Shown here: in pieces, positions 1 through 56,822 of the stretch
How the letters are laid out: the number at the start of each line of letters is the position of its first letter
Numbering within the stretch: position 1 is the first letter of the stretch
Source: Anaerolineae bacterium
GTDB lineage: Bacteria; Chloroflexota; Anaerolineae; DUEN01
Length of the DNA: 64,000 nucleotides
NCBI GenBank assembly: GCA_025060615.1
Contig: JANXBS010000020.1
Coordinates: 7,319 to 71,318, forward strand
Reading direction: 5' to 3'
Made by a program: the position numbers and the translations under genes
The notes under the pieces: model-generated
Told to the model about the DNA's origin: nothing
Databases searched by the model: none
The model's input: only the letters and a program-made list of their open reading frames with translations

Positions 1-1875
1 TATCTCGTCTTCCCCTACCGGCTCTATGACCTATTCGTGCGTGGCGCCCTGCCCGAGTTCGCGGCCTTCCTCTGGTTGCCATTGATCGCTTACTTGAACC
101 ACCGTCTGGCTCAAATCATTTCCACCGGGAAGCCTGCGCTTGAGATGATGCGCATCCCTATGTTCTTTCTGTTGAGCCTCGCGTGGGCTGGCCTTTTCTG
201 CACCCACAACTTGACTGCCCTCATGGCTGTGTTCATGGCTGCCCTGATGATCCCTCTCCTGGCCCTCACTCGCGCTTCAGCTTCTCCCCATCCCGCTTTG
301 TGGCCTGCTTTGGTGAATAGCAGCAAACTGATAGGGCTTCCTCTCCTAGCCGGTATCTTGGCGGGCATGATACAAATCGCGCCGTCTATCTGGGAAGCGC
401 CTTGGGTTAAGCTGGGGCTCGCCGCCAGCGATTTCGGGTTTCGCCGCCACTTGGCGAGCTGGGCTGATCTGATCACAATGGCCCCTGTGTTTCCTTATCC
501 CAACGCCGCTGAGCCGACGGTGCCTCTGCCTGGATATTTATTGATTAGCTTGGGAATGGCCCTGTTGGCATGGCTCTTCTGGCGGACGATGCCTGGGCGA
601 GGATACCTCACCGTAGCGTTGGCGATAAGCGGCATCACGCTTTTCCTCACCACAGAGGCCAGTTCACCCGTGTGGCATGGATTGCTGCCAGTGATGGGCA
701 GGCTTCAGTTCCCCTGGCGGTGGCAGGCGCCTCTCTCGCTGGCCTTTACGTGCGCGGTGGCGACCCTCCTAGAAGCCTTTTGGACGGCCCTTCCTCGTCG
801 AACGGCAGCCAGCGGCCGGTGGTTGACCGGCGTTAGCGCGCTGCTGGCCACCTACACCGGCGCCTACGCGACCCTCGGGCTAGCACCTAATCCGGCGCCG
901 TATACAGCCCGAGATCTCACCGTGGAACACATGTGGCAATTCGACGCCGAACATGGACAGGTGGGGGCTACTTGGACGGCGGAGTTTCTGCCCCGCTGGG
1001 TAAGCGAACAGCGATGGGCGCTCGGGCGCGCTCCATCCTCCGCTGAGGGGCCAACAGACGCTAGGCCCGTCACCTTTACCGCCATCCCTCTCGTTCAGGG
1101 TTACCTGCGTGAGAGCTGGTTCGTCACCGCCTCTCAGCCGTTAACGCTCCGTTTTCACCGCTTTTACTACCCCGCTTGGCAGGTCACCGTAGATGGCCAC
1201 CGTGTCCCCGCCTATCCAGATGGCGTCATGGGCCTGCTCGCCTTCGACCTGGAGGCCGGAGCTCATCAGCTAGAGCTCCGTTTCACTGTCACGCCAGCAG
1301 TTCAACTTGGCTGGCTATGCAGCGGAGTGACGCTACTGGGCCTCTCCTTCCTGGCGCTGCGTCCATATGGTCGCCTTAGGTTAAAGGTGGGACTGGCCGT
1401 GATAACGTTGCTGACCGTGATGACATGGAATCCTCTAGAGACGGCAGTCCATCCGCGGCCCATCGGCGCGGATTACGGCCCCGTACGCCTGGAGGCGATT
1501 GCCATCGGCAAAGCGCGCCCTGGAGAGAGGCTGCCCGTACATCTCTACTGGTCCGTTCAGAGGCCCACAGGGCCACTGACCGCCTTTGTGCATGTGGTAG
1601 GAGCGGACGGACGGATCGCCACGCAACGGGATGAACCGCTCGCTGGCCCATATACTCCCGCTGAGCGCTGGCGCTCTGGGATGGTGCTAAACTACACGCA
1701 CTGGGTGCCGGTACCCGCCGACATACCAGCAGGCGAGTACACCATCTACGTGGGCCTCTATCCCCCCGGCCAACCCGAAGCCCCCCTTCAACCTCTGAAC
1801 CGGCCCGATACGCGTCTGGCGGTGGGCGTTGTGAGGATAAGCCCCCTGACCATCTGGCCCGGCCGAACAGAATAA
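1..1875 (+). CDS. 5'-truncated multi-pass membrane protein (PTPS-related/YfhO-like GT-C fold) with C-terminal extracytoplasmic beta module
   Basis: Frame 1 is open from base 1 (YLVFPYRLYDLFVRGALPEFAAFLWLP), so the gene starts before the window. It has many hydrophobic segments, the QFPWRW and FYYPAWQVTVDG motifs, and a C-terminal LYW...AFVHVVGADG...QRD...RW..G...PAGEYTIYVGLY module. Confidence 0.7.
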   Translation, partial: YLVFPYRLYDLFVRGALPEFAAFLWLPLIAYLNHRLAQIISTGKPALEMMRIPMFFLLSLAWAGLFCTHNLTALMAVFMAALMIPLLALTRASASPHPALWPALVNSSKLIGLPLLAGILAGMIQIAPSIWEAPWVKLGLAASDFGFRRHLASWADLITMAPVFPYPNAAEPTVPLPGYLLISLGMALLAWLFWRTMPGRGYLTVALAISGITLFLTTEASSPVWHGLLPVMGRLQFPWRWQAPLSLAFTCAVATLLEAFWTALPRRTAASGRWLTGVSALLATYTGAYATLGLAPNPAPYTARDLTVEHMWQFDAEHGQVGATWTAEFLPRWVSEQRWALGRAPSSAEGPTDARPVTFTAIPLVQGYLRESWFVTASQPLTLRFHRFYYPAWQVTVDGHRVPAYPDGVMGLLAFDLEAGAHQLELRFTVTPAVQLGWLCSGVTLLGLSFLALRPYGRLRLKVGLAVITLLTVMTWNPLETAVHPRPIGADYGPVRLEAIAIGKARPGERLPVHLYWSVQRPTGPLTAFVHVVGADGRIATQRDEPLAGPYTPAERWRSGMVLNYTHWVPVPADIPAGEYTIYVGLYPPGQPEAPLQPLNRPDTRLAVGVVRISPLTIWPGRTE

Positions 1876-1882
1876 GCCTGCC

Positions 1883-11452: not shown

Positions 11453-11466
11453 TCGGATGGAGCAAG

Positions 11467-11512: not shown

Positions 11513-12931
11513 CTACTGAGGCCACGACCAGGGTAAGGTGTTCTGGTATACCCAAGCAATAGTGTGCAATGCCTGCGCGGCGATGAGCATCACCCCTGCT
11601 TGTAGCAACGCCTCTCGATCGGACAAAACGGCCGCCAGACGGTCGGCCAGCAGTAGCGTCAGGGGAATCGCCGCAGGGGCGAAGAGATCCCAATCCCGCT
11701 GGCCGCCGTAGTCGGGGTTCCACGTCCAGATGAAGAGCAGGTAGGCGCCGCTCGCCAGGCATAGCAGGTGTGTCCACGTCGTGCCATGGCGCATCTGCGG
11801 CCAAGCTAGGAGCGCTAAGCATACTAACGCCGGCAACACTACCGGCGCGATCAGCAGTTGCTCGTTCACGATGTCGAGTAGGTGTCCCCACGAGAACATT
11901 GTGTAATGTTCCCACCGAGTTGTAGTCTTAAACAGTGGCACTAGCCAGCGGCCATCGCCGCCGCCAGGCCGATCCTCGCCGACCAGATAGGCCAGGCCAT
12001 GTCCCCCGCTTTCCATCAGGGTGATCACTCCGCCCGACACGACGATCATGGGCAACGCGATCTGCCAGGCAGCAACCAGGCCTCCACTTGTCCCCGCTCT
12101 GCGACGAGCCCAGGCCCAGCCCAGGTATACCAGCGACGGAGCCAGCAATAATGTCGAAGGATGCAGCGCATGGGTGATCGCCAGTGCTGTCGCTGGCCAG
12201 ACGGGCATGAGCCGTCCCTGCAGGCAACGCCAGGCCAGCCACAGGTAGACCATCATCCCCAAAGACATCAACGTGTAGTTCTCCACGTAACCGAAGAAGA
12301 GCTGGATAGTCCCCAGCGTGATAACCAGGCCAAAAGTGAGCGGAGGCAAAGAGCGCTTTGCTCCTGACGGCTCATCCCTGCCCGTAGCGGGTAGCGTGGA
12401 CAGCTCTGCCGAGAGCCGGGCCAGCACATGGACAAAAACCCCACCTGCCAGCGTGCTGGTCAGCGCATATGCGGGCATGGCATCGGCCCAGCCCCATAGC
12501 CGATGGCCGAGCGCCCATAGCTGCGCATGCAGATAGACAGTGAGCGGGGCCTGCCAGTTGTAGGTGAGGCGAACCTCTGGGTGGGCAATGGCCTGGCTGA
12601 GGATGTAGGCGTCGCCCCAGCGGGTATGAGCCAGGCGGAATAGCCAGAAGGGAATTAGGCTAACGAGGCCGAGCAGCCATGGGAGATGAGGAACAGGTGG
12701 GCGGTTGGAGAGGCGATCCAGCCATGTGGCGATGCGTTGTGTCATCGGCGGCCAACAGATGAAGGCAGCCAGCCCGGCCAACGTCCAGCGCATGGGCATC
12801 GGCAGATACGTCGCCGGCCACACCCCCCAGGCGTATGACTCGTCCAGAAAGTGGACCAGCCCGTGCAAGAGGATGATAGCCAACGCAAGGACCCGCAAAC
12901 TGGCGAGGATCCAAGGCGATCGGACAAGCAT
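11513..12931 (-). CDS. Multi-pass membrane protein, probable GT-C fold transferase
   Basis: About 10 hydrophobic segments; WGDAY in the first loop, FFGYVENY, WNPDYGGQRDWDLF. Start moved to ATG 12931 because ATG 12940 directly abuts the TACAAT -10 element. Confidence 0.6.
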   Translation of the reverse strand: MLVRSPWILASLRVLALAIILLHGLVHFLDESYAWGVWPATYLPMPMRWTLAGLAAFICWPPMTQRIATWLDRLSNRPPVPHLPWLLGLVSLIPFWLFRLAHTRWGDAYILSQAIAHPEVRLTYNWQAPLTVYLHAQLWALGHRLWGWADAMPAYALTSTLAGGVFVHVLARLSAELSTLPATGRDEPSGAKRSLPPLTFGLVITLGTIQLFFGYVENYTLMSLGMMVYLWLAWRCLQGRLMPVWPATALAITHALHPSTLLLAPSLVYLGWAWARRRAGTSGGLVAAWQIALPMIVVSGGVITLMESGGHGLAYLVGEDRPGGGDGRWLVPLFKTTTRWEHYTMFSWGHLLDIVNEQLLIAPVVLPALVCLALLAWPQMRHGTTWTHLLCLASGAYLLFIWTWNPDYGGQRDWDLFAPAAIPLTLLLADRLAAVLSDREALLQAGVMLIAAQALHTIAWVYQNTLPWSWPQ

Positions 12932-20673: not shown

Positions 20674-22407
20674 TTGGCGGCCATGGAGCGGCCGATAGCA
20701 GCACGGATGACCTTTCTGGAATGGCTGACCCTGGAACGGGCGGCGTATGGTGGCCTTTTGCTGTTCGCCGGGCTGTGGCGCGTATTTCAACTTGGCCTGT
20801 ATCCGCTGAGGCCGGACGAAGCTCACCAGGCGTTGACAGCTTGGGAGGCAGCGCAAGGGCAACCTGTCACGCTGTGGGGGCTCAGCCCACTGCTGTTCAC
20901 ACTGCAGGAGCTCACCTTCATTTTCATGCAGGCCGGCGATGCAGCAGCCCGTCTCGGGCCAGCGCTGGCGGGCTTGGCCATCTGTCTGATCCCCTATGCC
21001 CTGCGCTCGCGGTTGGGACGTGAAGAGGCGTTGATAGCTGCGGGGTTTCTGGCCCTCTCGCCTACGCTGACGTATTTCTCGCGATATGCCTCCGGAGACG
21101 TGATGGCGGCGATGTTCGCGTTAGCGGCGTTGGCGGCCGGGCTGGCTGCCGTAGAGGATCGACGCTGGCTGTCCTGGGTGGGGGTGTCGCTGGCGTTGGC
21201 GCTGCTCAGCGGGCCGGGAGCCTACACGGCATTGCTGGCAGGGATACTGTGTTTCGGATTTTGGATTTGGGATTTCGGGTTTCGGGCGTCAGAACTTGGA
21301 GGCCGGAAGCTTGGGATTGGCCGGGGATGGCTGGCGGGCGGCCTGGTTTTTCTGTTGGGGGCAACGGCCGGGCTGCGGCATTGGGATGGCGTCGGCGCGG
21401 CGGCGGGGCTGTTGGGCGCGTGGGCTGCGCGTTGGTCACACCCAGAGCTGGAGTATCCGATCTATTGGCCGTTGCTTCGGCTGATCCTGGACGAGCCGTT
21501 GCTACTTGTCTTTGGCATGTATGGAGCCATTGTAGGCGTGCGCCAGGGTGATGGGCTCTCTAGGACGCTCACGTTGTGGGCGGGATTGGCTGTGCTGCTG
21601 CCAACGTTGACGCCGGGCCGGCAGCCCGAGGACCTGGTGATCGCCATCCCACCGCTGGCATTGCTGGCAGGACAAGGCGCAACCTCTTTTCTGCACTGCT
21701 TGGACTTCGGCCCTGCTCGCCTAGAGGTTGCAGCTTTCCTCGCTGTCATGGGGGTATTGCTGGTTACCCTATATGTCTGGGTTTCCGGCTACAGCCTGTG
21801 GGGTACTGCCCAGTATGTGATCGCCATGCTAGCACCGCTGGGGCTGATGACAGGGCTAGCGTTGTTTTACGGCGTCTGGGTCGGCTGGCGGGTGACAGGG
21901 CAGGCGGTAGCGCTGTTTGGCTCAGCCGTGGGACTGTTATGGACGCTCAGCGCAGGTTGGATTAACGCCCATGGGGTGGATCTGAACCGGCGGCCGGCGG
22001 TTCAGTGGGAGATGACATCTGAGGAAGTGCGGATGCTGGCCGGGCAGGTCCAGCGGTTGTCCACGCAGCGGGTGGGCGATCCGCATCTGTTGCCTGTGGA
22101 GATCGTAGACACACCACAGGCGCCGGTGTTGCGATGGTATCTGCGAGATATAGCCGATCTTCGGATAATCGGGGCTCCATTGCGAGGCGAGGCCGCTCCA
22201 GTGGTGATCACACCATTCACCGCAGAGTGGGCGCCGGGCGAGCAATATAGGGGACAGGACTTCTTGGTCACCGAACGATGGACACCGATAGGACTACACG
22301 GGCGTGAGTTGGTGCGTTGGCTATTGCTACGCCAGGGGTTGACGCTAGCGGAACAACATCGCGCCATCTTGTGGGTAGAGGAAAGCAACGAGGTGCTGGG
22401 GCAATAA
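20674..22407 (+). CDS. TIGR03663-like GT-C membrane protein (divergent paralogue)
   Basis: RPDEAH, GDAAARL, LALSPTLTYFSRY match the N-terminus of the downstream gene. Start is TTG 20674 (SD AGGAGG) or ATG 20683. Confidence 0.7.
   Translation: MAAMERPIAARMTFLEWLTLERAAYGGLLLFAGLWRVFQLGLYPLRPDEAHQALTAWEAAQGQPVTLWGLSPLLFTLQELTFIFMQAGDAAARLGPALAGLAICLIPYALRSRLGREEALIAAGFLALSPTLTYFSRYASGDVMAAMFALAALAAGLAAVEDRRWLSWVGVSLALALLSGPGAYTALLAGILCFGFWIWDFGFRASELGGRKLGIGRGWLAGGLVFLLGATAGLRHWDGVGAAAGLLGAWAARWSHPELEYPIYWPLLRLILDEPLLLVFGMYGAIVGVRQGDGLSRTLTLWAGLAVLLPTLTPGRQPEDLVIAIPPLALLAGQGATSFLHCLDFGPARLEVAAFLAVMGVLLVTLYVWVSGYSLWGTAQYVIAMLAPLGLMTGLALFYGVWVGWRVTGQAVALFGSAVGLLWTLSAGWINAHGVDLNRRPAVQWEMTSEEVRMLAGQVQRLSTQRVGDPHLLPVEIVDTPQAPVLRWYLRDIADLRIIGAPLRGEAAPVVITPFTAEWAPGEQYRGQDFLVTERWTPIGLHGRELVRWLLLRQGLTLAEQHRAILWVEESNEVLGQ
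21252..21286 (+). repeat. Five heptamer tandem repeats inside a CDS
   Basis: TTTCGGA TTTTGGA TTTGGGA TTTCGGG TTTCGGG, encoding FGFWIWDFGFR. Confidence 0.75.
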
Positions 22408-47345: not shown

Positions 47346-49754
47346 TCATAGCACGACCTGAACCTGAACCGGCAGGTAGATCGCCTGCATGGCTTGATCT
47401 ACCCCTTCACCCGCTATATCTACCCTCTTTCCGCTGTCCGGATCGTACATGCCCAGACAGATCCTGTACAGCCCCGGCGATAACGTCGGAGCCAGATTGA
47501 TCGCATAGAGATCGGGCACCAGATCGCCCGGACGCCAGCGGCTGGTGGGCCAGGAGTTGCCCAGCGGCGGGCTATCTCCCTGGCCAGCGAGCTGTCCGGA
47601 TGAGTCCAGCAGGTGCACGAAGACAGTGTAATCTCGATCTGGCGTAGCTTCGACCTGCCAGAACAGGCGCAGATGTAGCGTCTCCCCTGGGTGAACCTGA
47701 ACGCGGCCTTGGCCATTCTCTAGAGCGAAACCGGCCAATACCACTCCATTCGCTAACCGTGCTCTTATCGGCTGCGCCTGATCCGGAAGTTTGTCGCGGC
47801 GAGTGGCGATGGTCACTTCGCCAGAAGCGGTGAAGGATGCCAAATAGACTAGCGTATCTCCCTGGAAACGACGTGGCACAAGGTCGCCATCTTCCCCAAT
47901 GTAGGGCAACCGCGTGCTCGGATCCCATACGTTGGGGCCGCGAATCCATCCCAAGGCCATTGCATACACCTTTCCCGGCTCCAGCAGCCAATCTATGGTG
48001 TTCGCCCGCACTTCGACTATCCGGCCCGGCTGCCAGAGGCTCGTAGGATACCACACCAAAGCAGGCTGCGGAAATTCGGTGGCAGCGATAAGCGTACCAG
48101 GCTCCTCCACCAGATAGAGGATCAAGCGATAGTCCTCCTGCAGTGGGCGCAATGCCTCGAAGTACAGCGAGAGATGTGGAGCCTGGCCCGAGCGGGGATC
48201 AACCTCGTAGCCGAGGAAACGGATTACATCGCCAAAGCGGCCGGACATCCGTATATCGGGGTTGACGTCCTCAGGCAGGGCAAATCGGTAAAACGAATCG
48301 GGAAGCGGCCGGCGAGGAGCCCCCCGTTGAAATAGCACATACCCATCATCGGCAGCGATCAGGCCAAAATCCCCGCTCTCTAGGAGCCGTTGACGAAGGT
48401 AAGTCTGGATGTCGCCATAGTTGTTGCCAGGGTAGCTTTTCACATCAAGGAGGGCGTATTCGCAGTCCAGCGAATAGGGTAGTAGATGGATGGTGGACCG
48501 ATGCGTGAAGTGCGGATTAAGGTTGTCTTGAGTGCAAAGGCTAGCGTCATCCGGGATCAACCTCGCGAACTCTGCCAACCCGCGCTGATGTGAGGTGGGC
48601 CTCGGCCACTGAAAATCAGCGGCAAAGGGCATCCACGGCGAGCGGCTCGAAGACCACGCCGAGGCGAGCAGCAAGAGGCCCAGGGTTGCCGTCTGGGCTG
48701 GCTTCAGCCATGTCGGACGCCGCAATTGCGTCCAGCCCCACAGGGTTGCCAACCCGAGCGCGGCAGCGGCGGTGGCGATAGGAATCAAGGCGGCCACATA
48801 TTGGCGGCCGAACGTCCTCATCTGGCGGTCGCTACTCAGCAGGTTGATGGCCAACTCAGGGATCGCTGGTATCAACGCGGGGAGATTCAGCAGGGGTAGG
48901 CCGGCTAAGGGCAGCAGATAGTTCAGATAATACCTGCGAGCGACGTGATCCGTCAGGTTGGCTAGCATGTGTGAGGCGGCCGCGCGTGACATCGCAGCTT
49001 GATAACGGGACAGGTACGGAGAGCGACCGACGATGTTGTAAGCCGGAATGATGACGAAAGTGGCGATCGTGAACCAGGCCAAGGCTAGCAGGACGACGAC
49101 GATGCCGAAGCATCGCCGTTTTTGCATCAGCCAGGCCCACACTCCTAAGCCGGCGACCGCTAATGGGATGTTCTCCTTCGTCGCCATTGCCAGGGTGGCG
49201 ACGAGGGCAAATGGCCCATTGCGCTTCTCTTCCACGAAGTCGAAGGCGGCCAACAGCAAGGGAGCGGCCAGGGCGACGGCGTGGAAATCGCTGGTGACTA
49301 ACGAGTGTAGGCCAGGATGGGCGAGATAGGCCAAAGCGAGGCTCGCGCCAGCGGCTTCACTGTACAGCCGGCGACGGGCCAGGCGATATGCCGGGATCGC
49401 CCCCAAGGCCACAGCCGCAGCCTGAAGGATCAATAAGGCCCGCACATCTTCCCATAGCCAGTACAGAGGGACTAGGAGAAAATAGATCGGCTCGACGTGC
49501 ATCCCCAGCCGAGTGGGCTCTCGGAACCAGTTGTCCTTGCCAACCCAATTGGTGAATCGCAGCGGCCGGCCATGGGCTGTGTTCCACAAGGCTTGGTCGG
49601 CGTTCCCCAGATCGTAACCGGCTGTCTGGAATGCCTCATGGCGGGCGACCGACAGCGCGCCGAAGTATATCGCAAACGCCAGGGTGGCCAGGATCGTAAG
49701 CAGCAAACCCCACTTGCGGAACACGATCAAGCTTTTCACGGCTTGTGTCGCCAT
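47346..49754 (-). CDS. DUF2079-family GT-C membrane protein with two C-terminal beta modules
   Basis: YDLGNADQALWNT, MHVEPIY, DFH, KEN; close paralogue of 39458..42037. Confidence 0.8.
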   Translation of the reverse strand: MATQAVKSLIVFRKWGLLLTILATLAFAIYFGALSVARHEAFQTAGYDLGNADQALWNTAHGRPLRFTNWVGKDNWFREPTRLGMHVEPIYFLLVPLYWLWEDVRALLILQAAAVALGAIPAYRLARRRLYSEAAGASLALAYLAHPGLHSLVTSDFHAVALAAPLLLAAFDFVEEKRNGPFALVATLAMATKENIPLAVAGLGVWAWLMQKRRCFGIVVVLLALAWFTIATFVIIPAYNIVGRSPYLSRYQAAMSRAAASHMLANLTDHVARRYYLNYLLPLAGLPLLNLPALIPAIPELAINLLSSDRQMRTFGRQYVAALIPIATAAAALGLATLWGWTQLRRPTWLKPAQTATLGLLLLASAWSSSRSPWMPFAADFQWPRPTSHQRGLAEFARLIPDDASLCTQDNLNPHFTHRSTIHLLPYSLDCEYALLDVKSYPGNNYGDIQTYLRQRLLESGDFGLIAADDGYVLFQRGAPRRPLPDSFYRFALPEDVNPDIRMSGRFGDVIRFLGYEVDPRSGQAPHLSLYFEALRPLQEDYRLILYLVEEPGTLIAATEFPQPALVWYPTSLWQPGRIVEVRANTIDWLLEPGKVYAMALGWIRGPNVWDPSTRLPYIGEDGDLVPRRFQGDTLVYLASFTASGEVTIATRRDKLPDQAQPIRARLANGVVLAGFALENGQGRVQVHPGETLHLRLFWQVEATPDRDYTVFVHLLDSSGQLAGQGDSPPLGNSWPTSRWRPGDLVPDLYAINLAPTLSPGLYRICLGMYDPDSGKRVDIAGEGVDQAMQAIYLPVQVQVVL

Positions 49755-51955
49755 AGGCGCGGCAGCACCTGCACACGTAGAGGCAGCAAGATGCGATCGC
49801 CTGCGGGCTGGCCAAACGCGTCCACGACGTTCAGCCGGACGCCTGTGGCCGGATCGTACATCCCCACTTCAAGCCAATAATCCCCAGCCCGCGCATCCCA
49901 GGGTATTTTGAGCCTATACCGGTCCACGATCACTGTGCGTTCGGGCCAGGCATCGGTGGGCATTGTCCCGTTCACCGGCGGGTTATCCTTCGCTGCGGCC
50001 AGGGTTCCATCCGGCGTAAGTAGATGTGTGAAGACCGTGTAGGAACCGACCTGCTCTCCTGCTTTCCCCGAGGGCGGTTCCACGAGCAGCCAATACAACT
50101 GCAATGTAATCCTCTGACCCGGCATAGCTAGAGGCGGATCTACGTGCGCGTTGATCAGCCGAAAACGGCCGCCCAGCGTGCCCAGCCCAGCCGGCGACCA
50201 GCTTGGATCGGCCCCCACGCGATACAAGCTGCCCCTGGGCATGTTTAGCTTCATCATGGGCCGGCCCGCCGCCAACCGCTCGACGAACTCCGTCCCTTCG
50301 TCATCGCCCACCCAGATCCAAGGCTCACTATTGGAATGGGGCAGCTTCTCTAACAGGGCATCCCACCGTGGTCCTGGCGCCAGAACCAGGTCAACCTGAT
50401 CCCGCAAAAACGGATAGAGATGGCGAAACACGATCCCATCGGTGGTGATCACCGTCTCTTGCGGGATCGTCCTCTGTGCCTGTAGGAGAGCGATGGTTGC
50501 TGCGTAGGGTTCACGGATGAGCCGGGAAGAGATGTACGCGTTCCACGCCGGCTTCAGAAGGGCAATGCCGGCCAAGACAACGAGCCCGGCGGCGATGAAG
50601 ACCGCGCGCGGCCACCACGAGGGCGGAAGATACGATGGGCGCACTGTGATCAGGGCGAAGTCGGCGGTGAGGATCGTTAATAGCCCTGTACGGGCCAACA
50701 CGACAGCTCCTAATAACCACGGAGCATCAGAAAGCATACTGGCCAGGATCGGGTGTTCGATCGTGTTCAGCCCGGTGAACAGCACCACATAGGTTAAGCC
50801 GCGCAGATGGGGCATCAGCAGGATGATCAACGGCAGCAGATAGACCAGGTACTGCGGATTCCACGCTTTGAAATAGAGGAACAGCAAGGCCACGGTGAAC
50901 CCGGTCAGCGCGAGGACGCGATGCGGCGTGTTGTCATGGCGTCGCCGCGTCCAAACGGCCAGATAGATCAGCCCGAACACCAGCGTGACCAACGCCCAGG
51001 GCACGCGCGAGGCATGCAGGGAGACATCCGCCAGCGGATCAGCGCGATCGCCGACCACGGCCCCGATGCGGTCAAAGCCATCTAGCAACGCCCAAATCGT
51101 AGACCAGCTCGACCGGGCGACCAGGCTGCGAGCGAAGGCCATGAAATAGGCCGGGCTAAGGGCATAGGCGATAGCCGCAATGGGAACCATAACGAGTAGC
51201 CCGGCGCCGATCAACGCAATCTTGGAGCCCCAGCCGCGCAGCGCACGCAAAGCCGGCCCCAACAAGACGATAGGGAATAGCTTAATAGCCGTCCCTGCGC
51301 CGATGAGAAGCCCCGCCAGCACCGGCCGTGCTGCCAGGATTGCCCACAACCCCAACAACAGGAAGGCTAACGGCAGTGAATCAAACGCGCTGGTCATGGT
51401 GTAAACCGGCACGAACAGCCCAGCATACAGCCAAGCTGTGCGCACTGCCCTATCCTTGTCCCATGTGTGCAAGGCGATCCCGTATAGCGCAAGGAAGCTT
51501 ACCGTCTCGCAGGCCAGCAGGAAGAGCGCTAGTGGGACATGAAACCACAATCGATCGTCCTCCCACAATGGGATCGGACGCACCAGCTGATACAGGGCGA
51601 CTGTCAGCCAGGGGAACGGGGGCGGATATTCCGACCAGTAATCCCGGAACGGGAAGGCCCCTCGATCTATCTGGCTAGCTCCGCCTAGATAGTAGACGAA
51701 ATCTGAATAATCACGGACATAGCCACCCGGCCGGTACAGGAGCGCGGTGAAGAAGCGAAAGGTAATGAACAACACCAGCAACAACACGAAGTCGCTGTGC
51801 GCCTGATAGCGCGCGCGAACAGAAGCCTCTAAATCGAACCCATTTCTCAGGCCTCTGAGACAGATAAGCTTCGGAAACCTGATCGGACGATCTCTTAGAG
51901 ATCCCCCGAGCCAACCTTGCTGGGGAGCTGTCTTTTGCTCGATTGTGTCGGTCAT
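49736..51955 (-). CDS. GT87/DUF2029-like GT-C membrane protein with one C-terminal beta module
   Basis: SDFVYY, DYWSEYPP, FDSLP, IKLFP, WNPQYLVY. Start moved to ATG 51955 (ATGA overlap with the upstream stop). Confidence 0.72.
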   Translation of the reverse strand: MTDTIEQKTAPQQGWLGGSLRDRPIRFPKLICLRGLRNGFDLEASVRARYQAHSDFVLLLVLFITFRFFTALLYRPGGYVRDYSDFVYYLGGASQIDRGAFPFRDYWSEYPPPFPWLTVALYQLVRPIPLWEDDRLWFHVPLALFLLACETVSFLALYGIALHTWDKDRAVRTAWLYAGLFVPVYTMTSAFDSLPLAFLLLGLWAILAARPVLAGLLIGAGTAIKLFPIVLLGPALRALRGWGSKIALIGAGLLVMVPIAAIAYALSPAYFMAFARSLVARSSWSTIWALLDGFDRIGAVVGDRADPLADVSLHASRVPWALVTLVFGLIYLAVWTRRRHDNTPHRVLALTGFTVALLFLYFKAWNPQYLVYLLPLIILLMPHLRGLTYVVLFTGLNTIEHPILASMLSDAPWLLGAVVLARTGLLTILTADFALITVRPSYLPPSWWPRAVFIAAGLVVLAGIALLKPAWNAYISSRLIREPYAATIALLQAQRTIPQETVITTDGIVFRHLYPFLRDQVDLVLAPGPRWDALLEKLPHSNSEPWIWVGDDEGTEFVERLAAGRPMMKLNMPRGSLYRVGADPSWSPAGLGTLGGRFRLINAHVDPPLAMPGQRITLQLYWLLVEPPSGKAGEQVGSYTVFTHLLTPDGTLAAAKDNPPVNGTMPTDAWPERTVIVDRYRLKIPWDARAGDYWLEVGMYDPATGVRLNVVDAFGQPAGDRILLPLRVQVLPRLWRHKP

Positions 51956-53721
51956 CGTCGATTGGAACGCTGATAGAGCGCGACTAGTGGCACTCCTTGA
52001 TAGTCCAATGTCCACACAGGCTGATGCTGCGCCATGTAGTCTACCACATAGTCGAAAAACGTCGTCTGTCGGTATTCGACGATGGCGAAGTCAGCCTGAT
52101 CCATGCCCCCCTCTGTCCACTTCACGCCGGAATCGTCGTAGAACGATCCCCACCCTGGCGGCCGGACCATCACCAAATCGTCTCGCAGTAACCCAGCCTT
52201 TTGATAGTAATACATCACATCCCAACTATTGGGCATGACCCATACCGTTGCTCCGGGAGCAGCCCGACGATTCAGCTCGGGCAGGACCGCCCGATAGGTA
52301 GACGCCCAGTAGATGGTCTCCAATTGCAGGCGATGAGCGCCGCGTACACCACCGATGGCCTCGTTGTAGTAGGCCAGCTCGAACGGATGCAGGCGGACGA
52401 TGGCGAGAGCGCCGGGCGCAAGCATGGCGATACCCAAGACGACGGTGAGGAGCTCGGGCCATGCCTTCCTCATAACGATGGGCGATGGGAGACTCCCGCC
52501 CGAGATCCGTCGTTCATCGTCTCGCGTACGCGCAAAAGCACGCGAGGAGAGCCAGCGTGCTGCTGTATCGAACCCTAGACCGACCAACGGCGCTAGAAAC
52601 ACATAGGTCGGCATAAGCAGGCGATCGCCATCGAAGGCGCGGCTGCTCGGCCGCATAAACCATGCCACGGGGAGCAGCGCCTGGATCAGCCACAGCCTGG
52701 CCGCCAGTTGCGTCGGCCCCGGCCGGATCCCCTGGGCCGCGCCGATCGCGGCCAGCGCCAGCAACGGGACCGGCACCGTCACCAGCACCGTAACGATTGG
52801 GAAGTGCCATGGTGGCTCTAGGTAGGTTTTGCCGAGGTAGTACTGGTAGATCTCGTAGTGGCTAACGGTGAAAAAGCGTGCCCAGTTGATCAGTTTGGAA
52901 CCGGTTTCCGACCAAAACCAAGGGAACAATACGATGAGTGTCAGCAGGCCCAGCGGGCCCATCAGGATCAGACGCCCCCACAGGTCCCAGCGTCGCCGCT
53001 GATCACGAGAGGCGAGCACCCACAGCACCACGCCTATCGAGGCCAACACGTTGCTGATCTTCGTGGCAAGCGCCAGCCCGAAGGCCAGCCCGGGCACAAT
53101 CCACGTCCACAGCTGGCTGAAACCTCGCAAGCTGCTCCAAGAAGGCTTCACCGTAGAAGGATCCTGGGCGTTTCCAGCGGCCTCCGTGATGAGGGTGAGC
53201 CGCCAGAAGACCCACACGGCAAAAAACCACAGGGCCGCCGCCGGCAAGTCCAGCCCTGCGACATGCGCGTGGAAGAAAAGCCGGGGCATATCAAGCAACG
53301 CCAAAGCTCCTACCAGCGCGCCGATCCGCCCAGCCCCGGCCTGACGCACGGCTACATAGATCCACGCAGCCAACGTTGCAGACAACGCCATCGGCCCTAC
53401 CCGGTGCGCCGTGGGCAGAGGAAGCCAATTTCGGGTCAACGCCCACCCCAACCCGCTGATCGCCTTGGCCAGGGGGGGATGCTCGTGGTTTAAGCCGAAG
53501 CTAAGGCCGATGGCCGTTGGGTTTAGTGACTCACTCACATCCCCACGGACCAACCCACGAATCAGCATCCCCAGCCAGAGGATGATGCGCTGGCCGTTTT
53601 CGGCGTAGACCGGCTCATCCCACCCGACGGCCAACGTCCGCTCAGTGGCGAAGAGTACCCCAAATACGCTGATGGCCAGGATCAATGCAATCCAGCGATC
53701 CTGATGATCCCACCGGCTCAC
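51952..53721 (-). CDS. PMT/ArnT-like (GT39/83) membrane glycosyltransferase
   Basis: GWDEPVY, NHEHPPLAK, FFHAHVAGLD, GLALATKIS, HPFELAYYNE; GTGA overlap with the upstream gene. Confidence 0.8.
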   Translation of the reverse strand: MSRWDHQDRWIALILAISVFGVLFATERTLAVGWDEPVYAENGQRIILWLGMLIRGLVRGDVSESLNPTAIGLSFGLNHEHPPLAKAISGLGWALTRNWLPLPTAHRVGPMALSATLAAWIYVAVRQAGAGRIGALVGALALLDMPRLFFHAHVAGLDLPAAALWFFAVWVFWRLTLITEAAGNAQDPSTVKPSWSSLRGFSQLWTWIVPGLAFGLALATKISNVLASIGVVLWVLASRDQRRRWDLWGRLILMGPLGLLTLIVLFPWFWSETGSKLINWARFFTVSHYEIYQYYLGKTYLEPPWHFPIVTVLVTVPVPLLALAAIGAAQGIRPGPTQLAARLWLIQALLPVAWFMRPSSRAFDGDRLLMPTYVFLAPLVGLGFDTAARWLSSRAFARTRDDERRISGGSLPSPIVMRKAWPELLTVVLGIAMLAPGALAIVRLHPFELAYYNEAIGGVRGAHRLQLETIYWASTYRAVLPELNRRAAPGATVWVMPNSWDVMYYYQKAGLLRDDLVMVRPPGWGSFYDDSGVKWTEGGMDQADFAIVEYRQTTFFDYVVDYMAQHQPVWTLDYQGVPLVALYQRSNRR

Positions 53722-56700
53722 GGCGTTTCCCCCACAGCGATTTCTCCCAGCATGACGTGATCCGCCGTTGGACTCCCAGTCGCATCCAACACCAGCAACC
53801 GTTCGAGCGAATCGGGACGATAGAGCCCGGCTTCTAGCAAATACACGCCGGCAGGAAGGTCTGGCGGTATCGTCAATCGGTAGCGATCGGCCAGGACCTC
53901 ACCCGGCAGCCAGCCGGTGGTGGGGAATTGCCCTTCGCCTGGCACCTGGTCCCTCTGGGCTACGACCGTGCGATCGGCGTCTAACATGTGCACGAAGCCG
54001 ATATGTGACACGTCCCATGTCCTCAGCGGTTGCCAGTACAGGGTGACCAGATACGTCTCGCCGGCCTTCCAGCGTCGCGCCGGCCGGCCGGCCTCATCGG
54101 TCAGGTCGCATCCCAACAAGATCACTTGGTTACTCAGGTTTACATCGAGGCGAAGCTGCATGGAAGGAACGATGAATGTGTGAGGCCGCCCACGCACGCG
54201 GATCGTGCCGGCTGATGCCCGGGCCACTTCCCGACCGGCCTCGTCCTGGATCACCAGGAACGCCTGATAGAGCCCATCAGACAGCCCTGGGGGAAGCAAG
54301 GCATTCCATATGTCGCGGACGATGGCGCGAGGAGGCCATCGTTCTGGTGAGTAAGCACCGCCTATTGGATGCGTAGACGGCCGTTCCCAAGTCTGACCCT
54401 GCGCATCCTGCAAGATTAATCGAACGTTGAACGCATGGGATGGGGCAACAGCGGTGAGGCGCTGCTTCTCCCCGGCCTGCCACCATAGCACTAGTGGCCA
54501 GGGCGCCCCGTCTGGAAGTTCATCGGCCTCATAGCTCAGGCCTAATAACGTGATATCGCCAGCTGCGAGGTCTAGCCGTTGTCTGATCTCCAGGCGCTTA
54601 GGATCGGCCGGAACCGGCTCCGGCCCGATGGTCACATGGCCAAGCCTCAAGCGATCGCCTAGTGGTGCGCCATCGCTCGCTGTGATCGTCAAGTTGCGCC
54701 CCAGCGAGGGCGAGAACAGCGCGATCTCTAGCTCGTAGGTGCCAGGCGGGGTGCCTGGAAACGCAGACACCGCCTGGGCGTCACGAATGCGCATTCCGGG
54801 TAGCCAGCGATCCAACGGCAGAAAGCCGTCCACCGGCGGCCGGTCGTGCCTGCCCCAGATGCGTCCAGCGCTGTCACGCAGCCCGACAAACACGCTGAGA
54901 TCAGGGACGGGCGGTTTCAACACTTCCCAGTACAGGCGCAGGTTGCCCCGTCCAGCCAGCAACGGATCAGCCGGCGGCTCCCAGCCGAGCAGCCTGATTT
55001 GCCCCTCGAACACGGCGTCAAGGGGGATCACGTCGGTAGGCAGTGGCCCTGGCGGCACCATCGGCCCCGGATAGACCCAGGCGTAGTCAATGCCCGCGAG
55101 CCTGACGGTAAACTCGGCCGGCTGCTCTCGAAAATACCGGATGACCTGAGGGGCTGGCAGGGAGCGCTGTACTTGATTGACATACAGAACCACATAGTGG
55201 GCCATCGCCCATGGCCAAAAGCCGTCGGGTAATTGCTGATTGAGCTCCATAGTGCGGCCGGCGAAGTACGGGTCCAGGACAGAGGGATACCAGGCCGCCG
55301 CCATCTGGTGCGCGGAGCCGTCCTGGGCCGATAGCCACTTCCCTGCCTGATCTAACCCCTCGCCGTTGCCGATCATGAGGATTTGACGGGCGACGGAGGC
55401 GCCGCCAGCGAGCGGGCTGTAGAAGGCCTGTAGATCGGGGAAAACCGACAGCAGAAAAGCCGCCTGAGCGATGGCTAACAAAAGTTGAGCGGTCGCAGAG
55501 GGGTGACGAGCGAGACGAGAAAGCGGACGATAGGTGATGGACGAGAGACAACGCGCGAGCGCATGGATGCCCGTGGCGGCGATCAGCGCCAGCGCGGGAT
55601 AGGCCGGGATCAGGTAGCGATCGAACTTAGTCTCCGCCATCGTCAGCCCGGCCATCAGCGCAACTAGGAAGATCAGCCACGCTGCGATCAACCCTGGCCG
55701 GTGAATCCGCTGCCGAGCGGCCGAGACGGCCATCGCCACGAGCGTACCCAGCACAGCCAATAACGTCACTGGCGAGGTGCGGAAGAGCAGCGCCAGCGGG
55801 TAAAAGGCCGGGCCGGGAGCGTCTACGGTTTGCCCTAAAAAGAACTGATGGCGCTCGCCCAGCTCGACCTGCGTGATCTGCGCGTTTATCTTTTGCACGA
55901 CGCTGATAGAATCCACCCACAGCGCCGGCCAGAGGGCGACCGCGGTGAGCACGGCCAGCATCACCCAGCCGACCAGGACCACCCCCAGCGTCCTCCATTG
56001 CCCGTTGTCCTTCGACCGCCGCTTATCGTCTATCGCCCATCGCCTTAAAACAGCCCAGCTCGCCACCACCGGCCACAGGATGAGCGCTGGCAGCTTGGTG
56101 ATGATCGCTAGCCCACCCAGGATGCCAGAGATAATCACCCAGCGTCGGCCGTGACCATCCAAATAACACAGGAAAGCCAACAGCGACAGGGTCATTAGGT
56201 TGCCCTGGAGCGCGTCGGTGGTGATCACCCGATTGTAGCCGAGCCAAAACGGCTCCAGTGCCAACAATACCGCCGCCATCAGCGCGATCTCCCGGCCGTG
56301 GACGCGACTGGCCCATCGGTAGATCAGCACGGTGCACAGCGAAGTGACCACGGCGAAGGGGATGCGGGCGGCAATGTAGTAGTCCAGGGATGGGTATGCA
56401 TCGCGTGGAAGGACGGTGATCTCCAAGGTGGGGATGGGCTCGCCGAGGACAGCGGACCGGCCGGCCAGCCCCGCGGCGATCAGCCATAGATTGGTGACTC
56501 CGGGATGGGCGCTGCCGTAGGTGTTTGCCCAATCACCGGCTTGCAAGGCCAGCAGAAACCGGGCACCGCGGCGCAGCCACTCCACGCTATCCACGACGAT
56601 GGGCTGGCCGATCCAGAGCAAGCGGAGCAGCAAGGAGATGAGGAACAGCCCAATTGAGAAGGCTAGAAGGGACGAAGAGCGGGAAACGGGAAACGAGAAG

Positions 56701-56822
56701 CGAGAGATGAGGGACAGAGCTTGTCGTCCCTGATCGTCCTGTTGTCCCGCTACCTCTGGCCTGTCGGTCAAGGCAAGCCTAGCTCCTCGCTGCCCCGTTC
56801 TCCCGTTGCCTCGTTGCTCCAT
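53718..56822 (-). CDS. PMT/ArnT-like membrane glycosyltransferase with three C-terminal beta modules
   Basis: HPGVT, LALEPFWLGYNR..TTD, LAIITKLP, TKFDRYLIP, QAFYSPL. Start moved to ATG 56822, 21 nt after the argS stop. Confidence 0.8.
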   Translation of the reverse strand: MEQRGNGRTGQRGARLALTDRPEVAGQQDDQGRQALSLISRFSFPVSRSSSLLAFSIGLFLISLLLRLLWIGQPIVVDSVEWLRRGARFLLALQAGDWANTYGSAHPGVTNLWLIAAGLAGRSAVLGEPIPTLEITVLPRDAYPSLDYYIAARIPFAVVTSLCTVLIYRWASRVHGREIALMAAVLLALEPFWLGYNRVITTDALQGNLMTLSLLAFLCYLDGHGRRWVIISGILGGLAIITKLPALILWPVVASWAVLRRWAIDDKRRSKDNGQWRTLGVVLVGWVMLAVLTAVALWPALWVDSISVVQKINAQITQVELGERHQFFLGQTVDAPGPAFYPLALLFRTSPVTLLAVLGTLVAMAVSAARQRIHRPGLIAAWLIFLVALMAGLTMAETKFDRYLIPAYPALALIAATGIHALARCLSSITYRPLSRLARHPSATAQLLLAIAQAAFLLSVFPDLQAFYSPLAGGASVARQILMIGNGEGLDQAGKWLSAQDGSAHQMAAAWYPSVLDPYFAGRTMELNQQLPDGFWPWAMAHYVVLYVNQVQRSLPAPQVIRYFREQPAEFTVRLAGIDYAWVYPGPMVPPGPLPTDVIPLDAVFEGQIRLLGWEPPADPLLAGRGNLRLYWEVLKPPVPDLSVFVGLRDSAGRIWGRHDRPPVDGFLPLDRWLPGMRIRDAQAVSAFPGTPPGTYELEIALFSPSLGRNLTITASDGAPLGDRLRLGHVTIGPEPVPADPKRLEIRQRLDLAAGDITLLGLSYEADELPDGAPWPLVLWWQAGEKQRLTAVAPSHAFNVRLILQDAQGQTWERPSTHPIGGAYSPERWPPRAIVRDIWNALLPPGLSDGLYQAFLVIQDEAGREVARASAGTIRVRGRPHTFIVPSMQLRLDVNLSNQVILLGCDLTDEAGRPARRWKAGETYLVTLYWQPLRTWDVSHIGFVHMLDADRTVVAQRDQVPGEGQFPTTGWLPGEVLADRYRLTIPPDLPAGVYLLEAGLYRPDSLERLLVLDATGSPTADHVMLGEIAVGETP
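55996..56044 (-). repeat. Seven degenerate heptamer repeats inside a CDS
   Basis: Minus strand: GGCGATG GGCGATA GACGATA AGCGGCG GTCGAAG GACAACG GGCAATG (RWAIDDKRRSKDNGQW). Confidence 0.65.

Follow-up and report, generated by a model that had tools for sequence, protein, structure and literature searches.

A 64,000-nt stretch (here called the window) of a contig from an Anaerolineae metagenome-assembled genome (MAG) raises the question of whether a concentration of large polytopic membrane proteins marks a single system for extracytoplasmic glycan assembly or several independent ones. An initial annotation had listed eleven such genes with a summed length of about 27.8 kb. Open reading frames, hydropathy and lengths bear this out: eleven genes, here named G1 to G11, are present at or near the positions first proposed, all encode polytopic proteins, and together they account for 43% of the window (Table 1). 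The at least eight membrane helices required of GT-C proteins were found by hydropathy, whose strict threshold undercounts membrane segments in some of the proteins, and, for G2 and G7, in the secondary structure of AF2 models. In agreement with this membrane character, the strand-specific AT skew in the regions of these genes (-0.19 and -0.14 at 16-24 kb, +0.18 and +0.16 at 48-56 kb) is that expected of membrane-protein codons. Gene starts follow the annotation of the source assembly (G2, 472 aa; G5, 574 aa, start at 20683; G6, 1151 aa, start at 22449; G7, 833 aa), and those of G11 and G9 are most likely the ATG codons at 56822 and 51955. The window begins inside G1, whose complete gene was taken from the source contig. 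BLAST identified the paralogous pairs G3C/G4, G5/G6, G7/G8 and G10/G11 (G3N and G3C denote the N- and C-terminal parts of G3), pointing to gene duplication rather than a chance assortment.

Table 1. Positions of the membrane-protein genes, shared-domain copies and a neighboring gene within the window
Feature	Position	Strand	Description or support
G1	1..1875	+	C-terminal 624 aa of a 750-aa polytopic protein, PTPS_related/YfhO-like; one shared C-terminal domain
Shared domain, G1 copy	1432..1842	+	hmmsearch profile A3, 96 bits; BLAST to G7, G8, G9, G11
G2	11513..12931	-	472 aa; unannotated family conserved in Anaerolineae, predicted GT-C fold
G3	13235..17953	+	1572-aa fusion; PMT-like GT-C domain and DUF2298/TIGR03662 domain
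G4	18029..20620	+	863-aa DUF2298/TIGR03662 (Chlor_Arch_YYY) membrane protein
G5	20683..22407	+	574-aa PMT_2 protein, divergent TIGR03663/Agl23 relative
G6	22449..25904	+	1151 aa; TIGR03663/Agl23-family membrane domain and C-terminal NHL beta-propeller (about 24954-25901)
Epimerase/dehydratase (NAD-dependent sugar)	25948..26955	+	Pfam Epimerase, 116 bits; directly after G6
G7	39458..41959	-	833-aa DUF2079 protein; predicted GT-C membrane domain, alpha/beta domain, two beta-sandwich domains
Shared domain, two G7 copies	39464..40396 (39941-40396, 39464-39916)	-	hmmsearch, 41 and 190 bits
G8	47346..49754	-	802-aa DUF2079 paralogue of G7; last gene of the G11-G8 operon
Shared domain, two G8 copies	47349..48290 (47865-48290, 47349-47810)	-	hmmsearch, 43.5 and 153 bits
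G9	49736..51955	-	GT87-family membrane protein, about 739 aa; one shared-domain copy
Shared domain, G9 copy	49760-50215	-	hmmsearch, 148 bits
G10	51952..53721	-	589-aa PMT_2-like membrane protein with GWDE motif, without C-terminal domain
G11	53718..56822	-	about 1034 aa; PMT/PMT_2 membrane domain, then three shared-domain copies
Shared domain, three G11 copies	54621-55052, 54186-54614, 53727-54197	-	126, 84 and 163 bits

Families, motifs and predicted folds

Eight of the eleven proteins score above curated Pfam or NCBIfam thresholds, with matches to PMT/PMT_2, GT87, DUF2079, DUF2298/TIGR03662 and TIGR03663; no match above the thresholds of these collections was obtained for G1, G2 and G10. 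PMT (PF02366) or PMT_2 (PF13231) exceeds its gathering threshold in G3 (PMT, 48.7 bits; PMT_2, 39.9 bits), G5 (PMT_2, 37.8 bits), G6 (PMT_2, 40.6 bits) and G11 (PMT_2, 47 bits; PMT, 36 bits). G9 matches GT87 (PF09594) with 37.2 bits at a cut-off of 25, over profile positions 3-235 of 237, and G7 and G8, which share 39% identity (BLAST E 1e-162), match DUF2079 (PF09852) above threshold with 223 and 202 bits, respectively. In G3, a PMT-like domain spanning residues 1 to about 520 precedes a DUF2298/TIGR03662 domain (residues 719-1567; DUF2298, 407 bits); the latter and G4 (DUF2298, 389 bits) both pass TIGR03662, with 563 and 522 bits at a cut-off of 300. G6 passes TIGR03663 with 269 bits (cut-off 126.25; NHL, 175 bits), whereas G5 (90.6 bits) and G11 (21.5 bits) remain under this cut-off. 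At the family level, G5 and G6 align over their full length (hhalign probability 100% over 565 columns), and both reach 94-97% with the PMT-like families. G10 scores below threshold on PMT_2 (13.9 bits, E 0.065), and its putative tie to this family is a weaker one, running through the similarity of its membrane region to that of G11 (BLAST E 3e-10). Full-length G1 stays under the thresholds of YfhO (14.9 bits, E 0.008; threshold 28.5) and PTPS_related (9.5 bits, E 0.41; threshold 26.4); its possible, likewise weaker, link to PTPS_related depends on a homologue in another locus (L031; phmmer 92 bits to G1) that passes this profile with 50 bits.

Structure prediction indeed returned the GT-C fold proposed for these proteins in both cases analyzed, G2 and G7. 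The G2 model (pLDDT 84, pTM 0.89) gave Foldseek matches of which nearly all the best were GT-C enzymes (ArnT, EmbA/EmbB, STT3, PimE, ALG3 and AftB), with ArnT in first place (TM 0.49/0.44) and PIG-U, a GPI-transamidase subunit with a GT-C fold, also among them; the E-values are weak (best 6.7e-3, at TM scores of about 0.45-0.49). This model supports a predicted GT-C fold for a well-conserved family that is absent from Pfam and NCBIfam and has at least 894 homologues, all named hypothetical and none with a Pfam match. The G7 model (pLDDT 90) matched ALG9 (E 2.7e-6), STT3, AftA and DPY19, and DUF2079 reached 91.8% with the PMT-like G3N family in hhalign, supporting a predicted GT-C fold for DUF2079 as well.

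The acidic motifs that had been assigned to the first loop are all found in the translations (HPDE in G3, GTEKPMEF in G4, RPDE in G5, SHDE in G6, YDLGN in G7 and G8, SEYPP in G9, GWDE in G10 and WGD in G2), and homologue alignments show most of them to be invariant within their families. An acidic residue (D/E) of the first extracytoplasmic loop is invariant in the G3N, G6, DUF2079 and G2 families, as illustrated by H-P-D-E in 27 of 27 G3 homologues, D69 and E70 in 24 and 22 of 24 G6 homologues, and H105, W108, G109 and D110 in the G2 family. Exceptions are the G5 family, which keeps the Glu alone (the Asp of the DE motif, present in G5, recurs in only 2 of 44 homologues), and DUF2298, whose motif does not conform to the proposed placement but follows about four predicted membrane segments in G4. 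Among 61 sequences of the G4 family, E129, M132, D316, H318 and H320 are invariant and E133 is found in 60; the YYYxG motif of TIGR03662 is also conserved (Y160-Y161-Y162-x-G164).

DUF2298 accounts for two membrane domains out of twelve, namely G4 and G3C, and it is conceivable, if rather doubtful, that it represents a machine other than a glycosyltransferase, for example a polymerase, ligase or exporter, that works with PMT-like partners. Consistent with this idea, its profile reached 26% or less against five GT-C-type alignments in hhalign and had no match among PDB sequences, its acidic motif lies outside the first loop, and its D/H-rich motifs (IDEFP...GDMHPH) and a conserved soluble domain at the C-terminus set it apart from PMT. 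However, G3 and most related loci (see below) join it to a PMT-like GT-C domain, and it shares the large polytopic architecture with invariant acidic residues. Moreover, sequence comparison often fails to connect one GT-C family with another, as seen for the G2 family and DUF2079, which score 2% against each other in hhalign despite their predicted GT-C folds. Our literature search found essentially nothing on either DUF2079 or DUF2298. The proposal of at least six GT-C families stands in part: the eleven proteins come from about six sequence families and most of the proteins are of GT-C type, with DUF2298 showing no detectable link to this class, and nine of the eleven proteins are supported as GT-C glycosyltransferases using lipid-linked sugars.

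Conserved units and a shared C-terminal domain

The view of the locus as one contiguous system did not survive closer comparison. The genes fall into at least five units, separated by housekeeping and other genes (ABC transporters, citrate synthase, galactokinase, DNA-repair genes, SerA and others), and linkage is conserved elsewhere for G3-G6 and G11-G8 only, with G1, G2 and G7 standing separately. The neighbors of G2 differ in each of five relatives examined, and G7 does not adjoin G8-G11 in relatives. A single biosynthetic cluster of all eleven genes was rejected, since linkage across the full set is not conserved in other genomes. The gene content of the clusters also varies between close relatives. 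Routine occurrence of such gene density with known substrates in related genomes had been named as grounds for abandoning the original proposal. The first half of this applies, as comparable densities of GT-C-type genes do recur routinely in related Anaerolineae; the second half, known substrates, does not.

Dozens of metagenome contigs carry the cassette G3-G6 with its gene order intact. A G5-like gene comes after the G4-like gene in 40 of 48 loci and a G3-like fusion before it in 27 of 32, with a G6-like gene further downstream in 20 of 31; three other loci have G1-like genes some 2 kb downstream of the cassette. The sugar epimerase/dehydratase gene following G6 may belong to the cassette here, although it adjoins it in one other locus only and is thus not a conserved partner. 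G11-G10-G9-G8 is a translationally coupled operon, with overlapping stop and start codons at all junctions (4 nt for G11/G10, ATGA formed by the G10 TGA and the G9 ATG, and about 19 nt for G9/G8). The order ArgRS-G11-G10-(one extra gene)-G9-G8 is kept at about 82% identity in a relative (L007), which thus contains orthologs of G8 and G10; a further G10 ortholog is present in locus L008.

Five proteins from four membrane families (G1, G7, G8, G9 and G11) carry at their C-termini a total of nine copies of a previously unmodelled beta-sandwich domain of about 140 aa, which hmmsearch (profile A3) and BLAST did not detect in G2-G6, G10 or elsewhere in the window. In the G7 model, it corresponds to beta-strand domains at residues 552-708 and 721-856. 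Elsewhere, more than 23,000 protein clusters contain the domain, and the G11 architecture of a membrane domain followed by the shared domain predominates among the best database matches. Of the top 44 carriers, each of which may match several families, 18 match PMT_2, 11 PMT, 3 TMEM260-like and 3 PTPS_related, with four further families matched once each; the carriers checked are mostly GT-C proteins, those with names being GT39, DUF2723 and Gpi18-like proteins of Chloroflexota. Structural matches of the beta-sandwich were generic (transglutaminase, arrestin, RbmA) and included no specific carbohydrate-binding module (CBM). Nearly invariant Trp, His, Gln and Asp residues would fit a possible sugar site. 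The domain, described here as a family of its own on at least six GT-C membrane families, may be a marker of a common acceptor.

Candidate reactions and pathways

On balance, we slightly favor the interpretation that the window comprises several independent transcription units encoding GT-C-type glycosyltransferases, a gene class strongly expanded in the Anaerolineae, that transfer sugars from polyprenyl phosphate at the outer face of the membrane. Family membership, the two fold predictions, synteny and domain sharing are results of the analysis, to which we add an inferred mechanism. The donor would most likely be a polyprenyl-phosphate-sugar, used on the outside of the cytoplasmic membrane. 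By means of the conserved acidic residue in the early part of the membrane domain, the sugar would pass to an extracytoplasmic acceptor, either a secreted protein or a polysaccharide of the wall or sheath. The shared domain would lie outside the cell and bind a common acceptor or the product polymer, in the manner of the carbohydrate-binding modules found in Emb and AftD enzymes of mycobacteria. As initially reported, no GT2 synthase was detected by family scans among the window ORFs of at least 150 aa, and no polyprenyl-phosphate sugar synthase was found nearby in the window or beside the cassette in other loci; the sugar donors would have to be made elsewhere in the genome. Transfer by GT-C enzymes is also favored by a report that the extracellular filament protein (archaellin) of a Chloroflexota isolate is probably O-glycosylated (PMC12488501).

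That all eleven genes serve one combinatorial, archaeal-like pathway for a single envelope glycoconjugate appears very unlikely. Their co-location within 57 kb, the shared domain connecting G1, G7, G8, G9 and G11, the G1-like genes near the cassette in other loci and the Chloroflexi/Archaea names of TIGR03662 and TIGR03663 in NCBIfam are consistent with such a pathway. Against it stand the unrelated genes that interrupt the units, the inconstant surroundings of G2 and G7, the lack of the shared domain in G2-G6 and G10, and the result that no STT3/AglB-type oligosaccharyltransferase was found among the scanned window proteins, which also led us to reject an archaeal-type N-glycosylation pathway. 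The archaeal connection as such is real for TIGR03662 and TIGR03663, the latter being named in NCBIfam after haloarchaeal Agl23 ("flippase activity-associated protein Agl23"). Since G6 is a full member of this family, the earlier statement that no flippase is visible is doubtful. G6, G5 or both could even act mainly as translocators (flippases or scramblases) that supply lipid-linked sugars to their DUF2298 and PMT-like partners. This idea is in line with the G5 family, 42 of whose 44 members have lost the DE-motif Asp, as would fit a non-catalytic role. It also agrees with the ability of Agl23 from Haloarcula hispanica to translocate Man5GlcNAc2-PP-lipid in liposomes, as purified protein, and to rescue a yeast rft1-delta mutant (PMC11182771). 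Nevertheless, we consider it unlikely, because the Agl23 family is homologous to PMT_2 transferases, the G6 homologues retain an invariant H-D-E...H typical of catalytic GT-C loops, and the propeller of G6, presumed to be extracellular, resembles an acceptor-binding module.

The units might also be unrelated paralogue expansions that O-glycosylate many secreted proteins instead of building polysaccharides, similar to actinobacterial Pmt and eukaryotic PMT/TMTC/TMEM260. The PMT/PMT_2 matches of G3, G5, G6 and G11, the shared domain on TMEM260-like proteins, the variable cluster content and the probably modified archaellin would all agree with this role. However, characterized GT87 relatives act on lipoglycans, not proteins. 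This activity, exemplified by PimE (PMC12041525), argues against a pure protein-glycosylation function, and tandem repeats of the shared beta-sandwich better fit polymer binding, so that we regard the proposal as improbable. Returning to transfer by several independent units, a bolder extension, to which we give equally little credence, is that Anaerolineae use their many GT-C families to build an undescribed major envelope polymer or glycoprotein coat, with the shared module directing enzymes to the same acceptor and the DUF2298/Agl23-like cassette supplying or polymerizing lipid-linked sugars. If true, Chloroflexota would possess an equivalent of the arabinogalactan/LAM assembly of mycobacteria, and DUF2298 would represent a membrane enzyme of a new type that processes glycans.

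Relation to known systems

The closest parallel is the assembly of arabinogalactan and LM/LAM in mycobacteria and corynebacteria (EmbA/B/C, AftA-D, PimE/MptA-D), which likewise involves many GT-C paralogues from several families in one genome. The mycobacterial arabinogalactan/LAM enzymes act outside the membrane on wall polymer. Both systems include GT87 members (G9 here, PimE/MptA-D there) and enzymes with C-terminal beta-sandwich or CBM domains that are, or in the window would be, extracytoplasmic, and G2 and G7 show structural matches to EmbA/EmbB, AftA, AftB, AftD and PimE. By contrast, the window belongs to another phylum, contains no Emb or Aft sequence family, carries a shared domain of a family of its own and has no decaprenyl-phosphate sugar synthesis genes nearby, and mycobacteria have no counterpart of its DUF2079, DUF2298 and TIGR03663 components. 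The cassette resembles the haloarchaeal Agl22/Agl23 step in that G6 passes TIGR03663 and G3C and G4 pass TIGR03662, its usual companion, with the respective genes adjoining here and in dozens of loci. It differs by the lack of AglB/STT3 and an Agl22-type GT2 synthase nearby, the additional NHL propeller of G6, the PMT-DUF2298 fusion in G3 and a bacterial host with peptidoglycan genes. YfhO and PgfM1/2, which glycosylate teichoic acid or wall polysaccharide in Firmicutes, are comparable to G1, whose weak C-terminal matches are to YfhO and PgfM2, but G1 is under every curated threshold and has the extra beta-sandwich. With GT39 (PMT1-7, actinobacterial Pmt) and ArnT-like GT83 enzymes, the window shares PMT/PMT_2 matches and a conserved D-E loop motif, although its scores are modest (36-49 bits) and its proteins have other C-terminal extensions in place of MIR domains. 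This host presumably lacks lipid A and would then have no ArnT substrate. GT83 is reported to rank among the most abundant glycosyltransferase families in genomes of Chloroflexi and Anaerolineae (PMC6306507, PMC11650866).

The locus illustrates that a large share of the membrane-protein coding capacity of Chloroflexota goes to GT-C-type enzymes. These bacteria are abundant in sediments, sludge and sponges, and their cell-envelope chemistry is poorly known. Our results extend a known enzyme class to uncharted substrates and leave current ideas standing. The four-gene cassette, the G2 family and the common C-terminal domain provide handles for further work, and a cassette with an Agl23-like protein bears on whether the Agl23 family flips or transfers lipid-linked sugars. 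The window also contains peptidoglycan-related genes, namely YceG and SpoIID-like.

Gene set and layout

All eleven genes proposed in the initial annotation as large polytopic candidates for GT-C glycosyltransferases (G1-G11) correspond to real, long open reading frames with hydropathy profiles typical of polytopic membrane proteins, and, with the likeliest start codons, they add up to the same ~27.8 kb that had been claimed. The respective regions show a strand-specific AT skew, as expected for hydrophobic codons. Annotation of the remaining genes in the window revealed ordinary functions between the candidates, including two sugar-type ABC transporters, an NAD-dependent epimerase, citrate synthase, galactokinase, YceG, a URO-D-like protein and a pair of ECF sigma and anti-sigma factors; SerA, a PHP protein and ArgRS are also encoded in the window. 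These interspersed genes divide the candidates into no fewer than five separate units, namely G1, G2, G3-G6, G7 and G11-G8. The idea that they form one system is therefore supported only in part, and only G3-G6 and G11-G8 are conserved as units. As stated initially, there is no GT2 synthase among the scanned open reading frames of the window, and the same is true for STT3. Promoter and terminator scans of the window did not exceed chance level, and neither tRNA genes nor Rfam elements were found in it.

Coordinates of candidate genes, shared-domain copies and selected neighboring genes in the window
Feature	Position (nt)	Strand	Pfam assignment or content
G1	1-1875	+	no above-threshold match
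G2	11513-12940 (gene 11513-12931)	-	no above-threshold match
G3	13235-17953	+	PMT/PMT_2 (N-terminal), DUF2298 (C-terminal)
G4	18029-20620	+	DUF2298
G5	20650-22407 (gene 20683-22407)	+	PMT_2
G6	22317-25904	+	PMT_2, NHL repeats
G7	39458-42037	-	DUF2079
G8	47346-49754	-	DUF2079
G9	49736-52015	-	GT87
G10	51952-53721	-	no above-threshold match
G11	53718-56975	-	PMT/PMT_2
Shared domain, G1	1432-1842		one copy
Shared domain, G7	39464-40396		two copies
Shared domain, G8	47349-48290		two copies
Shared domain, G9	49760-50215		one copy
Shared domain, G11	53727-55052		three copies
VIT1/rubrerythrin-type protein	7313-8218	+	
Mrr-type protein	30571-31317	-	restriction endonuclease domain
UvdE protein	32302-34011	-	569 aa; UvdE domain in residues 35-239 only
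SpoIID/PD40/Big_7 protein	43311-46349	-	1012 aa; PD40, SpoIID and Big_7 domains
AAC(3)-family protein	46523-47320	-	N-acetyltransferase
Crp/Fnr-type regulator, then NosZ	58595-62482 onward	+	NosZ Sec-dependent (clade II), 879 bits

Several neighboring genes merit a brief description. G1 closes a co-directional run located immediately upstream of window position 1 on the source contig (L009, 13194-20864), in which it is preceded by a Bat-type operon with genes for a MoxR-like AAA ATPase, a DUF58 protein, a BatA/VWA protein and a VWA/GATase1-like protein. A ribose-type ABC transporter operon has the VIT1/rubrerythrin-type gene between its ATPase and permease genes, an order also kept in a relative (L006). 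At the other end, the nos cluster probably runs on past the window, with a 225-aa membrane protein without a family match encoded downstream of NosZ.

Units conserved in relatives

Scanning metagenomes with an alignment of DUF2298 identified 80 loci, with sequence identities of 36-52%. Among those with enough flanking sequence, a G5-like gene directly followed the G4-like gene in 40 of 48 cases, a G3-like PMT-DUF2298 fusion directly preceded it in 27 of 32, and a G6-like gene of the Agl23 type, usually with NHL repeats, lay further downstream in 20 of 31, which establishes G3-G4-G5(-G6) as a conserved cassette. Many of these loci (L031, L039, L045, L057, L074 and others) contain genes for an LPG_synthase_TM protein and a GT4 upstream of the cassette, along with one or two SAM-dependent methyltransferases and a ~700-aa protein that joins a methyltransferase-like N-terminus to PMT_2. 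In the window, none of these upstream genes is adjacent to G3. No GT2 gene was seen at the cassette loci. The LPG_synthase_TM protein is similar to the flippase domain of MprF. G2 was also considered as a member of the G3-G6 unit and rejected, since it is divergently transcribed and its neighborhood differs in each of five relatives; in one of these relatives, at 86% identity, the ABC transporter is kept on one side, whereas G3 is not. At two loci from one metagenome assembly, a G2 homolog has genes of the mevalonate pathway (HMG-CoA reductase, thiolase) and GalT in its vicinity.

The second conserved unit, ArgRS-G11-G10-G9-G8, is retained in a related MAG (L007) with ~82% protein identity. 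Its genes overlap at every junction from G11 to G8, by 4 nt (G11/G10), an ATGA (G10/G9) and ~19 nt (G9/G8), consistent with translational coupling. L007 has an extra gene between the G10 and G9 orthologs (10587-12338, plus strand), whose product, a polytopic GT-C-like protein of 583 aa, carries the loop motif GEAPDE as well as a weak copy of the shared C-terminal domain, indicating that the gene content of this operon turns over fast. Among the genome contigs scanned for G10, those containing it came from two close relatives only. Downstream of G8, L007 encodes RecJ in place of the AAC(3)-like protein found in the window, and the SpoIID/PD40/Big_7 gene does not follow G8 there either; the AAC(3)-like, SpoIID-like and PHP genes in the gap between G8 and G7 were not counted as conserved partners. 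The AAC(3) gene, which starts 26 nt past the end of G8, and the SpoIID/PD40/Big_7 gene have the same orientation as the flanking G8 and G7. The adjacency of G7 and SerA is conserved elsewhere inside a different cluster, which in one relative reads PMT, PMT_2, DUF2079, DUF2079, SerA, DUF2079.

The density of the candidate genes is not unusual but typical of this lineage. Another contig of the same MAG carries an additional PMT_2-DUF2079 pair, a 15-kb stretch of a relative holds five such genes, three DUF2079 paralogs share one 12-kb contig, and the cassette loci contain four to six such genes each. CAZyme surveys of genomes from Chloroflexi and Anaerolineae (PMC6306507, PMC11650866) name GT83 as one of the most abundant glycosyltransferase families. 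Routine density combined with known substrates had been named as an argument against the initial interpretation; the density proved to be routine, but a literature search found no paper assigning a substrate, with DUF2079 and DUF2298 essentially absent from the papers searched.

Families, folds and conserved acidic motifs

The HMM and Foldseek searches suggested in the initial annotation yielded curated family matches as well as a predicted GT-C fold for G2 and G7. Apart from the Pfam assignments, G4 and the C-terminal half of G3 both passed the NCBIfam model TIGR03662 (Chlor_Arch_YYY), and G6 scored 269 bits on TIGR03663, currently named "flippase activity-associated protein Agl23", as compared to a cut-off of 126 bits, while G5 reached only 90.6 bits. 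The G5 and G6/Agl23 families are homologous (hhalign, 565 columns, 100% probability). G10 resembles the membrane region of G11 (BLAST E 3e-10) and weakly matches PMT_2 (E 0.065). G1 is truncated by the window edge; its full-length, 750-aa product has sub-threshold matches to YfhO and PTPS_related. A 770-aa G1-like protein from L031 (92 bits to G1, phmmer) passes PTPS_related with 50 bits, and because only this homolog does so, the tie of G1 to the family is indirect. PDB sequence searches with G1, G2, G4, G7 and G10 returned nothing meaningful.

Structural models were generated with AF2 for G2 and G7, for which the sequence evidence was weakest, and compared to the PDB with Foldseek. The G2 family comprises at least 894 homologs with ~50% identity, all from Anaerolineae or Chloroflexota and all named hypothetical, with no Pfam match or family model. 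The best matches of the G2 model (pLDDT 84, pTM 0.89) are nearly all GT-C enzymes, including ArnT (TM 0.49/0.44), EmbA, EmbB, STT3, PimE, ALG3, AglB and AftB, along with PIG-U, a GPI-transamidase subunit with a GT-C fold. Although the E-values are weak (6.7e-3 or worse), the match list is consistent, suggesting that G2 represents a new family with a predicted GT-C fold. Its members share the invariant residues H105, W108, G109 and D110 as well as the motifs HxxWGD and NPDYGGxRDWDLF-like. The model of G7 (pLDDT 90) matches ALG9 (E 2.7e-6), STT3, AftA and DPY19, and profile comparison connects DUF2079 with the N-terminal, PMT-like domain of G3 (91.8% probability). The candidates are thus mostly GT-C-type proteins, from about six families, but DUF2298 could not be linked to this fold: it reached at most 26% in hhalign comparisons with five GT-C-type alignments, and its profile matched no PDB sequence. 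However, this negative carries little weight, because two families with predicted GT-C folds, G2 and DUF2079, reach only 2% when compared to each other, making negative hhalign results between GT-C families uninformative.

The acidic motifs reported for the first loops were all recovered, but the GTEKPMEF motif of G4 is preceded by ~4 predicted membrane segments and thus lies outside the first loop. HPDE is kept in 27 of 27 homologs of the N-terminal half of G3, D69 and E70 in 24 and 22 of 24 G6 homologs, respectively, and D71, Q77 and N81 in all 41 DUF2079 sequences. In the DE motif of the G5 family, Glu is present in 42 of 44 members and Asp in only two, although G5 itself has the Asp. Given this predominant loss, the G5-type paralog may be catalytically different or inactive.

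The initial interpretation is partly supported. The analysis established family membership, two predicted GT-C folds, conserved acidic motifs, the organization of the operons and the sharing of a domain. An uncharacterized variant of extracytoplasmic glycosylation based on GT-C enzymes is the best description of the locus. By analogy with established GT-C enzymes, the donors would be polyprenyl-phosphate sugars, catalysis would occur at the outer face of the membrane, and the acceptor would be either a polymer of the envelope or secreted proteins. An extracellular filament protein of one Chloroflexota isolate is probably O-glycosylated (PMC12488501), which shows that the phylum has acceptors of this kind. 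Contrary to the statement that no flippase is visible, G6 belongs to a candidate flippase family. Purified Agl23 from Haloarcula hispanica translocated a lipid-linked oligosaccharide, and yeast rft1-delta was rescued (PMC11182771). However, PMT_2 transferases are homologs of the G6/Agl23 family, and the catalytic-looking H-D-E motif is retained in homologs of G6, so that the role of Agl23-type proteins in flipping or transfer is ambiguous. The archaeal-like character proposed for the locus holds for the TIGR03662 and TIGR03663 families, a component in common with Archaea, but the locus consists of several units rather than a single combinatorial pathway.

A shared C-terminal domain

Apart from the G2 family, the analysis yielded a second by-product that was not part of the initial annotation, a very common, unmodeled, GT-C-associated domain. 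All-against-all BLAST identified a soluble C-terminal segment of ~140 aa in G1, G7, G8, G9 and G11, which represent four membrane families. Profile searches detected nine copies in these proteins and none in any other open reading frame of the window. In the G7 model, the segments fold as beta-sandwich domains with generic structural matches (transglutaminase barrels, arrestin, RbmA, glycosidase Ig-like domains). Pfam returned nothing significant (best match Wzt_C, E 0.09), and no NCBIfam model covered the domain in the full-length carrier proteins.

Since a word-indexed protein search retrieved only short fragments, we compared the domain profile exhaustively with 1.84 billion cluster representatives; 32,441 proteins matched at E ≤1e-3 and 23,806 at E ≤1e-10. 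Typically, the best matches have ~1000 aa and, like G11, three C-terminal copies. When 44 top carriers were scanned with Pfam, allowing multiple families per carrier, most matched PMT_2 (18), PMT (11), TMEM260-like (three) or PTPS_related (three), with NosD, Chlam_PMP, MG2 and NPCBM_assoc found once each. Named carriers include a "glycosyltransferase family 39 protein" and a "DUF2723 domain-containing protein", both from Chloroflexota, and a "Gpi18-like mannosyltransferase". We infer that the domain binds a glycan or the acceptor on the extracytoplasmic side. Within it, Trp, His, Gln and Asp residues are nearly invariant.
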